From a virus (lineage: Duplodnaviria > Heunggongvirae > Uroviricota > Caudoviricetes), in IMG/VR virus record IMGVR_UViG_2675903368_000015: 12,331 bases of DNA; one strand, 5' to 3'. The translations under genes were made by a program, and so were the position numbers. Positions 6,385 through 11,279 of this stretch are shown here, one piece after another (the first letter of the stretch is position 1; each line of letters begins with the position of its first letter). The notes beneath the pieces were generated by a model. That model did no database searches. It was not told the origin of the DNA and worked only from the letters and a program-made list of their open reading frames with translations.

Positions 6385-6541
6385 AGCTTCAGCCCCTTGT
6401 ATCCGTTAAATGATTCAGCAACAATCATCACCCACCACGCGCGTAATCTCACCCCTGCGCTATTCTCCCGCCACGGCGACAACAAAAAGCAGTAACCCCC
6501 TCCGCACGCACATGCGACCATGCCGCACAGGGAGGGAACAG

Positions 6542-7651
6542 ATGACCGACACCACCATGCAATTGCTCAGTCAGGGCACAGACCCCGTGAAAATGCCGGA
6601 TTTTGATATTCTCGCCGAGGGTAAAACGCTGTCCGGCGTGGCAGAACGCCTGATGAGCCTGTCACTGACCGACAACCGGGGATTTGAGGCGGACCAGCTC
6701 ACCATCACGCTGGATGATGCCGATGACCAGTTGCAGCTACCGCCACGGGGCGCGCGTCTGACGGTTCTCATTGGCTGGAAAGGGGAACCGCTGACAGAAA
6801 AAGGCACTTACATTGTTGATGAAATCGCTCACGAAGGACCGCCGGACAGGCTGACTGTTTCAGCCAGAAGCGCAGATTTTCGGGATGAATTTAATGTTAA
6901 ACGTGAGGCGTCCTGGCATGATGTGACCGTTGAACGTGTGGTATCCGCCATCGCTCATCGGTACAGCCTGAAACCGCAAATCAGCGAAATGCTGATGGAT
7001 ATCGAAATCGACCACGCCGACCAGACTGAAGAAAGCGACATGTCCTTCCTTACGCGCATGGCGGAAATGCTGGGCGCAATCACCACGGTAAAAAGCGGTA
7101 ATCTGTTATTCATCATGCCCGGCGGTGGCGTGAACGCACAGGGCCAGCCGTTGCCATCGTTCGCCATCACACGCAGCAGCGGCGATCGCCATCAGTTCCG
7201 CATTGCTGACCGCGAGGCGTATACGGGGGTACGCGCTTACTGGCTTGATCTTAATTACGGGAAAAAGAAAAAAGTCAGCGTGAAACGCCGCAAACCGCCA
7301 AAACCCAAAAAGGAGAAAAGCAGCAGCCGTGAAGGTGATTATATGGAAGGCGCGGAAGGCAATGTGTTTGTGTTACGCAAGACTTATCAGAACGAGCAGG
7401 CAGCAAGACGCGCAGCGGCGGCAAAGTGGCAGCAGCTACAACGCGGAGCCGCATTATTTTCCATCACGCTGGTGCGTGGACGTGCAGAACTCTACCCCGA
7501 AATGCATGGCACGGTAACAGGATTTAAAAGCGAGATTGATAATCAGGACTGGATTATTGCGAAAGCCGAGCACACCATTGATAACAGCGGCTTTACCACA
7601 CAGCTTGAGCTTGAGGCAAAAATCCCGGAATGGATAGCAGAAACAGAGTGA
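6542..7651 (+). CDS. D: P2 gpD-like tail/baseplate protein (phage late control gene D family)
   Basis: 369 aa from the ATG at 6542, which has a GGAGGG RBS 5 nt upstream (the track ORF extends in frame to 6410 without an obvious RBS). Motifs ...LSLTDNRGFEADQLTITLDDADDQLQLP.RGA...GW.GE...DEI.H.G.PD.L...ARSADFR...ESWHD... and a Lys-rich linker before the C-terminal ...LQRG...FSI.L.RGRA.L.PE....GFK..ID.QDW.I...H...NSGFTT.LELE are typical of this family. Confidence 0.8.
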   Translation: MTDTTMQLLSQGTDPVKMPDFDILAEGKTLSGVAERLMSLSLTDNRGFEADQLTITLDDADDQLQLPPRGARLTVLIGWKGEPLTEKGTYIVDEIAHEGPPDRLTVSARSADFRDEFNVKREASWHDVTVERVVSAIAHRYSLKPQISEMLMDIEIDHADQTEESDMSFLTRMAEMLGAITTVKSGNLLFIMPGGGVNAQGQPLPSFAITRSSGDRHQFRIADREAYTGVRAYWLDLNYGKKKKVSVKRRKPPKPKKEKSSSREGDYMEGAEGNVFVLRKTYQNEQAARRAAAAKWQQLQRGAALFSITLVRGRAELYPEMHGTVTGFKSEIDNQDWIIAKAEHTIDNSGFTTQLELEAKIPEWIAETE

Positions 7652-7771: not shown

Positions 7772-8794
7772 TTAATACGCATTTAATTTAAATTTGTATT
7801 TGCCTTCTATGTAATGGATAAATTCAATTATGCTTTTTTCTATCGCATCTAATATATGAATATATCCATCCCGATTTAAGGTCCTATCCAACTCAAAGTG
7901 ATGAACTATCCCATGTCTATATTGTATGATTTCAGAAATTCGATTCTCAAGAAAATCAACTGATTTTCCAATTCTTTTTTTCTTATAAAGAATCGCTCTC
8001 ACATCTATATCCAGCCACTCTTTATATGCTTTGTTTAGGTGGGTTAAGTTTTGAAAAGTGTAATTTCTTGCAATAACACTTTCTATTGAAATATTTCCTT
8101 TCTCTATCTCAAGCAGAATATCAAAATCAACTTTTTGCTTATACGATGTTCTTTTTGCTATTGCGAAAGGATCGTACTTTATAAGTATTTGAAAAGCTCT
8201 AGAGAAAAAGTATTCAAACATAGCAACCGCAAAAGGTACTAATCCATTATATATAACTCTACTGGGATCCATACATTGCATGTAATCAAAGTATTCGGAT
8301 AAACCGCCATCTTCCGGTAGGTTTAATTTAATAGAAGGTTCAGGTAAGGCATGTTTAACAGCGGAAATCTCATGATGGACATGATTAAATATTGAAGAAA
8401 TGCCACGACTGATCGGACTACTAGAATCCTTCCATAGAGGAGCGTACCTATTTTTCCCATAATCACCTATAAGTGTTCCACCAAAAAGACTCCTTGCGCC
8501 TTTTAGAACATCATTAAGCATTTTTACATCATGCCAACTAGCGCTATATAAATTACGCACATGCAATGCCCATTTATTACCAGATATGTGTAATTCGTCA
8601 TTTGAAACAGGATATATATCAGCCGAAACTCCATCTGTAGATTTGAAGTCCGTATCATCAAACCAAGAGTAATTCAACGTTCCTTGGGGCCATTCCCTCA
8701 AATGTTTACACCTTTTAAAACCTAAATTTTCAAGGTAATTTTTAAGTTCGTTTCTAGTTGCTTTTTTAGGGTACAGCGTTATATCTCTTCCCAT
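7772..8794 (-). CDS. Hypothetical protein, 340 aa, AT-rich inserted gene between D and ogr; function unknown
   Basis: Long uninterrupted ORF on the strand opposite D and ogr; AGGTG RBS about 8 nt upstream of the ATG at 8794; base composition visibly AT-rich compared with the flanking tail genes. No family recognised by eye; contains RHGIVHH near the C-terminus. Confidence 0.75.
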   Translation of the reverse strand: MGRDITLYPKKATRNELKNYLENLGFKRCKHLREWPQGTLNYSWFDDTDFKSTDGVSADIYPVSNDELHISGNKWALHVRNLYSASWHDVKMLNDVLKGARSLFGGTLIGDYGKNRYAPLWKDSSSPISRGISSIFNHVHHEISAVKHALPEPSIKLNLPEDGGLSEYFDYMQCMDPSRVIYNGLVPFAVAMFEYFFSRAFQILIKYDPFAIAKRTSYKQKVDFDILLEIEKGNISIESVIARNYTFQNLTHLNKAYKEWLDIDVRAILYKKKRIGKSVDFLENRISEIIQYRHGIVHHFELDRTLNRDGYIHILDAIEKSIIEFIHYIEGKYKFKLNAY

Positions 8795-9436: not shown

Positions 9437-9577
9437 ATGTCGCAAAAATCGCTTACAGCCATCACGTTCTGCGTGACGGTAATCCTCATCATCTGGATGT
9501 TGCACGGTTCGCTGTGCGAAATACGGATGAGTTTCTGGGGAGCGGAGTTTGCGGCGTTCTTACAGTGTAAGCAGTAA
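9437..9577 (+). CDS. Hok/Gef-family type I toxin-like small membrane protein (46 aa), not in the supplied ORF track
   Basis: Hand-translated: MSQKSLTAITFCVTVILIIWMLHGSLCEIRMSFWGAEFAAFLQCKQ. One hydrophobic helix followed by SLCEIR and AAF, as in plasmid R1 Hok (...[27 protein letters not shown]). AAGGAG RBS 8 nt upstream. Confidence 0.6.
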   Translation: MSQKSLTAITFCVTVILIIWMLHGSLCEIRMSFWGAEFAAFLQCKQ

Positions 9578-9586
9578 GGAAACCGC

Positions 9587-9608
9587 GACGGGGGAGTAAT
9601 CCCCCGTC
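9587..9608 (+). other. Perfect 9-bp stem-loop (gacggggga gtaa tcccccgtc) just 3' of the hok-like ORF
   Basis: Perfect inverted repeat with a 4-nt loop and no following U tract; could be a 3' mRNA fold-back or stability element as in hok mRNAs, or a Rho-dependent stop. Confidence 0.4.
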
Positions 9609-9658
9609 AATCGGTTGCCAGGGTAAGGTCGATAAGGCACCCTATCTCACGGCTCTAA

Positions 9659-9837: not shown

Positions 9838-10170
9838 ATGGCATTAATCAAATGTCCTGAATGCCAGAAAGAGGTGAGCGATTCAGCATTGTATTGCCCT
9901 GCTTGCGGTAAACAAATAAAAAAACTTAAGCGTTCATTTTTTGGAAAGCTCATTAAGTGGATATTTATATTATTTAATATTTTTATGATCTATACGCTTT
10001 TAGTTGGACTGGGAGGCACTAGTGAAATAATAAATAATGCTACATCCGATGCCGAAAAAGCCGGTGCAGTTATTGGTACAGGCTTAGGTTTAATTACCAT
10101 TGGAAGTTTATGGGTTATTGGCGATATCATTATCGGAATTTTAGTATTTCTTACTAAACCAAAAGGATAA
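9838..10170 (+). CDS. Small membrane protein with N-terminal zinc-ribbon (CPEC...CPAC) and two predicted transmembrane helices
   Basis: 110-aa product; N-terminal CPECQKEVSDSALYCPACGK, then two long hydrophobic segments (LIKWIFILFNIFMIYTLLVGLG and AVIGTGLGLITIGSLWVIGDIIIGILVFL); AAAGGAGG RBS 8 nt upstream; AT-rich. Confidence 0.7.
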   Translation: MALIKCPECQKEVSDSALYCPACGKQIKKLKRSFFGKLIKWIFILFNIFMIYTLLVGLGGTSEIINNATSDAEKAGAVIGTGLGLITIGSLWVIGDIIIGILVFLTKPKG

Positions 10171-10174
10171 CAAA

Positions 10175-11068
10175 ATGAAAAATATAATTTTTTCTATAGG
10201 TGCATCATTTATATCAATTAGTGTACTGCCTGTTCACGCAGCAACTGAACATAATAACTTCAATGCAGTACTCCAGTGCCGAGCAATAGAAAATAATAAA
10301 GACAGACTTTCTTGTTACGATAAGTCAATACAACCGACTCGAACGAAAGTTGCTGAAAAATTCGAAAGCAGAGATCAATGCCCTGATGAGAAAGATGATG
10401 ACAGACGTTTATCTTGTTATGATCGTTTTTTTTCTCCAACATTTACTCCATCTGTAAACTCAAAATCTAAAACGGAAAAGCCAGTAACAACAGAGGCTCA
10501 GCAACCAAATCTTTCTGAGATATCTAAATGCCGAGCAGAAAATGATAAAGAAGCCAGACTAAACTGCTACGATAAACTATTCCCACAGGATAAAGCTGTT
10601 CAAGCTGAATCAAAATTAGAGAAAGCCACAGATGTAGGAAAATGGCACACATCCATTACTACATCGCCAATTGATGATTCGAAAAATGTAATTTTATCGT
10701 TAGAAAGTGATGATTATATCAGAACTCCATTTGGAGAAGCGGTTACTCCCACTCTGTTTATAGCTTGCCGAGAAAAGAAAACCGAAGTATTTCTTAGTTG
10801 GGATGTATATTTAGGCCTTGAACAAACCAGCATGCTTTATCGTCTTGATAAACAGAAAGCAGTTGAGCGAAACTGGCTAGTATCTACAGATACAAAGGCT
10901 GTTTTTTATAAAGGTAATGACATTGATTTCATCCGAAAACTAGCCAACTCAAACAAAATGTATACAAAAATAACTCCTTATAATGAGAGCCCTGTAAGTG
11001 CAACTTTCAATTTAAACGGCCTGTCAAACGCGCTAAAACCACTTCAAGCTGCTTGTAACTGGAAATAG
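10175..11068 (+). CDS. Secreted protein with three tandem Cys-pair repeats and a C-terminal domain of unknown function
   Basis: 297-aa product; start is 4 nt after the upstream stop, with an AAAAGGA RBS (operon-like); N-terminal signal peptide MKNIIFSIGASFISISVLPVHA with AXA-type cleavage site and no lipobox; three repeats of C-x9-RL-x-CYD (CRAIENNKDRLSCYD, CPDEKDDDRRLSCYD, CRAENDKEARLNCYD); C-terminal Cys pair (IACREK ... AACNWK). Confidence 0.75.
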   Translation: MKNIIFSIGASFISISVLPVHAATEHNNFNAVLQCRAIENNKDRLSCYDKSIQPTRTKVAEKFESRDQCPDEKDDDRRLSCYDRFFSPTFTPSVNSKSKTEKPVTTEAQQPNLSEISKCRAENDKEARLNCYDKLFPQDKAVQAESKLEKATDVGKWHTSITTSPIDDSKNVILSLESDDYIRTPFGEAVTPTLFIACREKKTEVFLSWDVYLGLEQTSMLYRLDKQKAVERNWLVSTDTKAVFYKGNDIDFIRKLANSNKMYTKITPYNESPVSATFNLNGLSNALKPLQAACNWK

Positions 11069-11095
11069 CATAAATCATGTGGCTTAGCCACAATC

Positions 11096-11139
11096 ACAGA
11101 TAACACAAAGCCCGTGAAAACGGGCTTTGTGTTATCTGT
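11096..11139. repeat. Perfect 19-bp inverted repeat (acagataacacaaagcccg / cgggctttgtgttatctgt) with a 6-nt loop; possible bidirectional terminator or protein-binding site
   Basis: Arms at 11096..11114 and 11121..11139 are exact reverse complements; no U tract on either side. Immediately preceded by a second small palindrome GTGGCTtAGCCAC (11079..11091). Confidence 0.5.
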
Positions 11140-11279
11140 AACTCGAAAATGTGGTCACTACGTGGACACGTGCTGATATAAATCCTTTTATATCAATAAA
11201 TTAAATCATCATTTTTTTCATCAACAAGGATTTTCACGTTTGTGTTACCTGTATGAGACGAGAGTTAACCAGACAAGTG

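Follow-up and report, generated by a model that had tools for sequence, protein, structure and literature searches.

VasI/TagO proteins (PF11319, TIGR03360) are known from type VI secretion system (T6SS) clusters. They include V. cholerae VC_A0118 and the cluster-encoded T6SS-2 TagO of E. coli O157 Sakai, ECs_0222, which is located between impL/tssM and clpV. A signal peptide is followed in these proteins by a C-x8-RL-x-CYD motif, a linker and a β-sandwich with two conserved cysteines. Outside T6SS clusters, a VasI-like fold has been described for SDIC4B from Serratia defense islands, which alone gives 10–200-fold phage protection (bioRxiv 10.1101/2024.01.28.577318). Here we describe a VasI-like gene in a 12,331-nucleotide stretch of E. 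coli chromosome (IMG/VR record IMGVR_UViG_2675903368_000015; hereafter the window). The open reading frame (ORF) at 10175–11068 (+) encodes, by program translation, a 297-aa exported protein in which the 15-residue two-cysteine motif is present three times. We consider it somewhat better than an even bet (probability about 0.55) that this protein is a prophage cargo product in which a triplicated VasI-family module serves as a disulfide-stapled envelope tether for phage conflict.

Three VasI/TagO modules in one exported protein

The motif was noticed in a first-pass annotation of the window, and the translation of 10175–11068 (+) gives exactly the three strings that were quoted there: CRAIENNKDRLSCYD (module 1, aa 35–49; 10277–10321), CPDEKDDDRRLSCYD (module 2, aa 69–83; 10379–10423) and CRAENDKEARLNCYD (module 3, aa 119–133; 10529–10573), all on the + strand. 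The formula given for them, C-x9-RL-x-CYD, has to be corrected to C-x8-RL-x-CYD, because eight residues separate the first cysteine from the arginine; the stated unit length of 15 residues agrees with the corrected form. Nor are the units evenly spaced, as had been thought. The first cysteines lie at residues 35, 69 and 119, at intervals of 34 and 50 residues, and the spacers between modules are 19 and 35 residues long. These spacers had been described as rich in Asp and Lys, but their composition is instead biased toward Lys, Thr, Ser, Pro and Glu. A Lys or Arg follows CYD in all three units, as proposed; the aromatic residue expected after it is found in units 2 (RFF) and 3 (KLF) but not in unit 1 (KSI).

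Assignment to the VasI/TagO family is clear at the level of Pfam. The protein passes the PF11319 gathering threshold (E 2.6e-25; 89.6 bits against a cutoff of 26.5) with three matching stretches, the best of which places aa 118–296 on model positions 1–184, and RefSeq names it ‘T6SS-associated protein TagO’. The NCBIfam TIGR03360 VasI equivalog cutoff is not reached (75.9 against 124.2 bits). When each unit was submitted alone as a 32-mer, modules 1 and 2 matched PF11319 positions 1–22 (E 1.1e-3 and 0.012, respectively) and module 3 matched positions 1–23 (E 3.7e-4). Judged by these single-unit matches, the two-Cys module marks the N-terminus of VasI/TagO proteins, and the element triplicated here is therefore the family's own.

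The remaining cysteines also follow the family pattern, in which the N-terminal motif is combined with two conserved cysteines in the C-terminal domain. The window protein has eight, six within the units plus C198 and C294. ECs_0222 carries one motif copy, CRRESAALERLDCYD, in the same four-Cys layout and is 26% identical to the window protein over aa 113–296, with C198 and C294 aligned to the C146 and C241 equivalents. Module 3 aligns with the ECs_0222 motif and with the sole motif of one-copy VasI proteins; by this alignment, unit 3 corresponds to the one ancestral copy, to which units 1 and 2 were added.

Homologues found by sequence (92) contain one copy in 43 cases (~210 aa), two in 19 (~250 aa) and three in 29 (~297 aa). 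The C-terminal domains of three-copy, two-copy and one-copy homologues are 66–79%, 55–66% and up to 74% identical, respectively, to that of the window protein. Because these ranges overlap between copy classes, copy number changes within closely related lineages, and alleles of one, two or three copies are found among closely related prophages. In 29 homologues, which come from Escherichia, Klebsiella, Raoultella, Enterobacter and Pantoea, both the position and the sequence of all three units are conserved.

The module in other exported proteins

A module profile (42 columns, 53 units) was used for an exhaustive search of 1.84 billion representative proteins and matched 323 of them at E ≤ 1e-3, with up to six matched stretches per protein by HMMER and up to four motifs by regular expression. 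The carriers are VasI proteins plus unrelated exported proteins, which bear the module singly or in 2–4 tandem copies. Pfam scans identified a phospholipase A1/OMPLA (P0119) with the motif N-terminal to the barrel, Sel1-repeat proteins with 2–4 copies (P0097, P0099, P0106, P0114 and P0151), some of which also contain pentapeptide repeats or TonB_C, and a VasI protein with four module copies (P0103). In many carriers of 170–230 aa, a single or paired module is joined by a Pro/Ala-rich linker to a C-terminal domain that has no Pfam assignment. The first unit starts at median residue 31, directly after the signal peptide, and tandem units are mostly spaced by 18–19 or 25 residues.

The consensus derived from 190 distinct units is C-[AR]-[SA]-I-x-D-x3-R-L-A-C-Y-D-x-L-x-P-P, where R10 is conserved at 97%, L11 at 99%, D15 at 95% and Y14 at 82% (Phe in 16%). 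On this distribution, the module is mobile across exported proteins and variable in copy number. There is no separate Pfam or NCBIfam model for it, and literature text searches (RLACYD, LACYD and similar strings) returned no relevant mention. The element is thus recognized here as a previously undescribed periplasmic mini-module: the N-terminal motif of TagO/VasI is a self-contained, copy-variable unit shared with OMPLA and Sel1/TonB_C proteins, which provides a handle for finding its binding partner.

Two further groups of carriers are described here for completeness. Proteins P0098, P0105, P0112, P0120 and P0141 belong to a separate exported family of 170–280 aa, with one or two modules, a Pro/Ala-rich linker and a conserved ~60-aa C-terminal domain ending in ...V.RIK or RIQ. 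For the members scanned, the sole Pfam match is to VasI positions 1–47, comprising the module and a bit of the linker. In P0108 (356 aa), two related two-Cys motifs, C-L-K-I-A-D-G-x-x-G-R-L-x-C-D-D and C-R-F-x-K-E-Q-D-x-R-L-A-C-Y-N, alternate three times with Pro-rich spacers, an arrangement that suggests diverged module subtypes.

Export and predicted structure

The first-pass annotation took the protein to be secreted, and its N-terminus, read by eye, is of the Sec type. The predicted signal peptide, MKNIIFSIGASFISISVLPVHA (aa 1–22; 10175–10240, +), has Lys2, a hydrophobic core and a VHA-A site, with cleavage expected before ATEHNN; the predicted local distance difference test (pLDDT) score is below 50 at aa 1–26. 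The AlphaFold2 model was computed from a 58-sequence alignment and has a mean pLDDT of 74. In units 1 and 3, a short helix ends at Cys1 and is followed by a 4–5-residue loop and a second helix that contains RLxCYD (residues 29–35 and 41–51 in unit 1, 113–120 and 125–135 in unit 3). The disulfide-stabilized hairpins proposed earlier are plausible on this model. The linkers at 56–67, 88–110 and 139–151 have pLDDT values below 50 and are probably flexible.

The C-terminal domain (aa 155–297; 10637–11065, +) is modeled as a β-sandwich with pLDDT 82–96. It contains C198 (10766–10768), which is invariant among homologues, and C294 (11054–11056), which is conserved in more than 90%. Foldseek matches this domain to Bartonella IalB (3dtd) with E 7.5e-7, a template modeling (TM) score of ~0.63 on the target and 14–16% identity. 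It also resembles several uncharacterized phage proteins in BFVD. The Pfam IalB model (PF06776) scores below its gathering threshold (20.6 against 22.1 bits).

The gene is cargo of a P2-like prophage

The window begins with a partial IS1 (~1–730), followed by the P2-type tail genes gpU, tape measure, chaperone, tube and sheath. These are succeeded by gpD, a 340-aa ORF with a weak HEPN match, ogr, hok/gef, a zinc-ribbon gene, the VasI-like gene and flk (from 11336). Prophage-free E. coli genomes align to the window only from 11215 on and a genome with the prophage elsewhere aligns up to 11227, which locates attR, with core ttttcatcaacaa, at approximately 11215–11227 as the prophage/host junction. 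The VasI-like gene is the last prophage gene before attR.

The gene is present in 225–237 of 5,426 complete E. coli genomes (~4%), including ST131 isolates, and a protein of 99–100% identity is encoded in the Peduoviridae genomes of Citrobacter phage Shae_phiSM, Escherichia phage PhiR44_2 and phage 500465-2. In the circular genome of Shae_phiSM (OR565851) the order is int, att, VasI-like, zinc-ribbon, ..., ogr. The arrangement of ogr and then the VasI-like gene recurs in P2-like prophages that carry Klebsiella three-copy, E. coli two-copy and Klebsiella, Dickeya and Citrobacter one-copy homologues, and within the Enterobacterales the carrier prophages are integrated at at least four different chromosomal sites. 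A species-level genome scan recovered the same prophage setting in Raoultella, Klebsiella, Pantoea, Brenneria and Salmonella. These observations establish the VasI-like gene as cargo (a moron) of a P2-like (Peduoviridae) prophage. Papers on P2 hotspots mention neither ogr nor TagO/VasI.

The adjacent gene (9838–10170, +) encodes a 110-aa zinc-ribbon protein with CPEC...CPAC and two predicted membrane helices (Pfam Zn_Ribbon_1, E 1.8e-7; weak NCBIfam DrpB match, E 1.4e-4). With 4 nt between its end and the VasI-like start codon, the two genes probably form an operon; a simple promoter scan gave no convincing sigma-70 site upstream of 9838. Loci in Klebsiella, Dickeya, Citrobacter, Raoultella, Brenneria, Salmonella and Enterobacter have the same partner gene (110–117 aa) ahead of the VasI-like gene. 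The partner is not universal and is confined to Enterobacterales copies. At two loci, in Enterobacter mori (L018) and Izhakiella australiensis (L023, where the partner is a two-TM remnant), the zinc-ribbon and VasI-like pair has no P2 tail genes, gpD or ogr within 10 kb, indicating that the pair can persist or move independently of an intact prophage.

Two of the database records call for care. In OR565851.1 (Shae_phiSM) the label ‘tagO’ is on the 333-bp zinc-ribbon gene, the true VasI-like gene is called ‘hypothetical’ and a 1.1-kb gene bears the name ‘ogr’, so the labels are shifted. NC_049343.1, ‘Escherichia phage 500465-2’, is a prophage prediction that extends into host flk, yfcJ, fabB and mnmC.

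Proposed function and alternative explanations

In the model that we favor, each module would fold independently in the periplasm as a loop-plus-helix (helix–loop–helix) stapled by an intramodule Cys1–Cys13 disulfide, and would bind a common component of the envelope as a tether or adaptor. On flexible linkers, additional copies would give the IalB-like C-terminal domain more avidity or reach. The whole protein would serve the prophage in envelope conflict, as superinfection exclusion or defense, and not as a structural T6SS accessory. A conflict role is proposed because the cargo region is shared with hok and a HEPN-like gene, because relatives have defense-island neighbors and because SDIC4B protects against phage. 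VasI-like proteins are accordingly candidates for envelope-level phage exclusion, consistent with the report on SDIC4B. A broader and more speculative extension would treat C-x8-RL-x-CYD as an autonomous periplasmic mini-domain (~15–20 residues, a disulfide-stapled loop-helix) that is a universal tether to one envelope component in Gram-negatives and phages, with VasI-like carriers on phages and defense islands forming a new envelope anti-phage (superinfection-exclusion) class evolutionarily linked to TagO/VasI; we offer it tentatively and think it rather more probably wrong than right.

The modules themselves might be questioned on two grounds. The AT-rich region and compositionally biased spacers could point to a chance or low-complexity feature, or to a functionless product of recent replication slippage, but C-x8-RL-x-CYD did not appear even once in 200,000 shuffles of the protein, and the 95–99% conservation of R10, L11 and D15 over the 190 distinct units, together with that of Y14, is not expected of either. 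Strong conservation across homologues likewise argues that the motif is not generic low complexity. Nucleotide identity between units is only 25–32 of 45 positions (56–72%; units 1 and 3 are 72% identical over 47 nt), Tandem Repeats Finder (TRF) reported no tandem repeat at the DNA level and the three-unit layout is common to several genera; the duplication is therefore old and internal rather than a product of slippage, as the first-pass annotation had concluded. On the shuffles, the conservation and the nucleotide divergence, we regard chance, low complexity and recent slippage as excluded, with a negligible residual probability. The second question concerns the cysteines, which could instead form intermolecular or inter-module bridges, producing covalent oligomers or partner links, or could bind metal. 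Six evenly matched cysteines on flexible linkers would permit such pairing, and OMPLA, which carries the module in some species, acts as a dimer. However, 100 motif proteins (72 one-motif, 28 two-motif) have no mature cysteine outside the motifs, and 82 of 89 VasI homologues add only the pair equivalent to C198 and C294. Among 367 RLxCYD cores, the partner cysteine is at identical spacing (C-x11-C) in 364 and no variant lacks the second cysteine alone, and neighboring units only 18 residues apart still have two cysteines each. A typical Zn site needs more than the two thiols that each unit provides, and the periplasm is oxidizing. Since there are carriers without other cysteines and the spacing is fixed, one disulfide per module is the simplest reading of these (selection-biased) counts, and we consider alternative pairing or metal binding unlikely.

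The role of the whole protein is open to two other explanations. It could be a working TagO/VasI, that is, a phage-borne periplasmic accessory of the host T6SS whose extra modules bind it more strongly to the cell wall or the T6SS membrane complex. The PF11319 score, the 26% identity to ECs_0222 with its shared motif and four-Cys pattern, and the RefSeq name are all compatible with this idea, but genomic context is not. None of the loci examined lies within a T6SS cluster, and membership of the VasI-like gene in such a cluster was rejected on this basis: the Enterobacterales copies follow ogr in P2-like prophages at their several sites, and the non-enteric one-copy relatives, which are without P2 genes, have no T6SS genes as neighbors at seven loci scanned or, at one further locus, within 8 kb. 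At four of the seven, the immediate neighbors are defense genes, encoding an Old/AriA/GajA-like ATPase with GmrSD, a PDC-S35 TIR protein, a RecD-like helicase with SngA, and a CARF/Csx1 protein. The sub-cutoff equivalog score and a partner that is a zinc-ribbon membrane protein rather than a Tss protein also disfavor a T6SS accessory, which we judge improbable. Many of the examined enterobacterial homologues are annotated ‘TagO’; because this clade is P2-like prophage cargo and relatives elsewhere in bacteria are defense-island cargo, such annotations are no evidence of a T6SS. Alternatively, the protein could be a lysogenic-conversion factor for virulence or host interaction, like IalB, with modules that bind a host or bacterial surface component. 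The resemblance of the C-terminal domain to 3dtd and the sub-threshold Pfam IalB match are in line with this, as are the virulence morons of P2-like phages, e.g. cytolethal distending toxin (PMC9122126), and the many listed carrier strains that are human isolates. The fold match is nevertheless at 14–16% identity to a protein whose own mechanism is unclear, relatives occur beside defense genes in environmental Shewanella, Photobacterium, Pseudomonas and metagenome-assembled genomes, and there is no export signal beyond Sec. We give a virulence function a low probability.

Several observations weigh against the envelope-tether model itself. In the AlphaFold2 model, unit 2 is without the first helix and has the second alone (residues 75–85), and the modules have moderate pLDDT values (~70–80). 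The case for intramodule pairing comes from cysteine counts, which are biased since both the profile and the regular expression select for the two cysteines. PDB searches with the whole protein and with the motif profile found no solved structure that includes the module, and a 2026 review gives the function of TagO/VasI as ‘Unknown’ (PMC13584744). The defense-island association covers the neighbors of the seven non-enteric loci alone, with four positive, and neither the VasI-like protein nor its zinc-ribbon partner has a match in PADLOC-DB v2 (E ≤ 1). For SDIC4B, the authors report no detectable sequence identity to VasI, such that the link is one of fold only (bioRxiv 10.1101/2024.01.28.577318).

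Other features of the prophage

A perfect 20-bp hairpin without a U-tract (inverted repeat, 11096–11139, +) sits between the VasI-like stop codon and attR. The RNA fold of 11069–11160, a stretch that also includes a 6-bp hairpin at 11078–11092, has an energy of −43.4 kcal/mol (z −9.2). The larger hairpin may be a terminator, an att-region protein-binding site or a repetitive extragenic palindromic (REP)-like element.

In the stretch from ogr to the zinc-ribbon gene, a Hok/Gef-family toxin gene (9437–9577, +; Pfam E 3.7e-7) is followed by a GC-rich hairpin (9586–9609). In the two-copy E. coli variant of the prophage (L005–L007), hok is the same, but a TM2-domain protein replaces the zinc-ribbon protein and the VasI-like gene is inverted. 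Between gpD and ogr, the 340-aa ORF at 7772–8794 (−) has a sub-threshold match to Pfam HEPN_RiboL-PSP (E 2.5e-4; 21.4 against 28.4 bits) and no PADLOC match, and an α/β-hydrolase replaces it at the same position in the P2-like prophage L005. This position looks like a second variable cargo slot, possibly occupied here by an abortive-infection or defense gene.

The gpD ORF (6410–7651, +) is 413 aa as listed, with a Pfam Phage_GPD match that starts at residue 113; relatives are 369–384 aa long, and the annotation of an ST131 genome lists gpD as an 800-bp fragment of the VgrG/Pvc8 family. Strains differ in the start codon or the integrity of gpD. At the other end of the window, the partial IS1 (~1–730; transposase ORF 195–698) abuts gpU (799–1293, −), where related prophages have invertase or tail-fiber genes. 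The IS1/gpU junction has no exact match in complete E. coli genomes, and only 1 of 5,426 reaches a coverage of at least 80%, at 95.5% identity and in two pieces. The prophage of the window strain is probably interrupted or truncated by IS1.

Comparison with known systems

The window protein is a multi-module, phage-borne member of a family that is itself already known. It shares with VasI/TagO the order of signal peptide, motif, linker and β-sandwich with two conserved cysteines. It differs in having three motifs instead of one, in falling under the NCBIfam equivalog cutoff and in genomic location, since its gene, next to that of a zinc-ribbon membrane partner, occupies the att end of a P2-like prophage and not a T6SS cluster. 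The other module carriers, such as OMPLA P0119 and the Sel1/TonB_C protein P0151, follow the same C-x8-RL-x-CYD logic. In these proteins, however, the module is attached to β-barrel lipase, Sel1, TonB_C or pentapeptide domains and the copies are tightly packed (18–25 residues), compared with spacers of 19 and 35 residues in the window protein. The likeness to Bartonella henselae IalB (PF06776; PDB 3DTD) is a β-sandwich fold like that of the C-terminal domain; the low identity and sub-threshold Pfam score set the two apart, and the 3DTD match spans the β-sandwich alone.

Envelope superinfection-exclusion proteins include Glo of the P2-like vibriophage K139, Imm and Sp of T4, and Llp of T5. These, like the window protein, are small proteins that are exported or membrane-bound and are expressed from prophage or phage morons, and they act at the envelope against incoming phage. 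They have no sequence or fold relationship to the window protein, for which an exclusion role is putative. SDIC4B, compared here by its description, has a VasI-like fold and is found outside T6SS clusters in mobile or defense contexts in Enterobacteria. According to its authors it shows no identity to VasI at BLAST level; the window protein, by contrast, belongs clearly to PF11319. The window showed no BrxR-like gene, although no specific search was made for one; SDIC4B is associated with BrxR, whereas the VasI-like gene described here is associated with the end of a P2 prophage.

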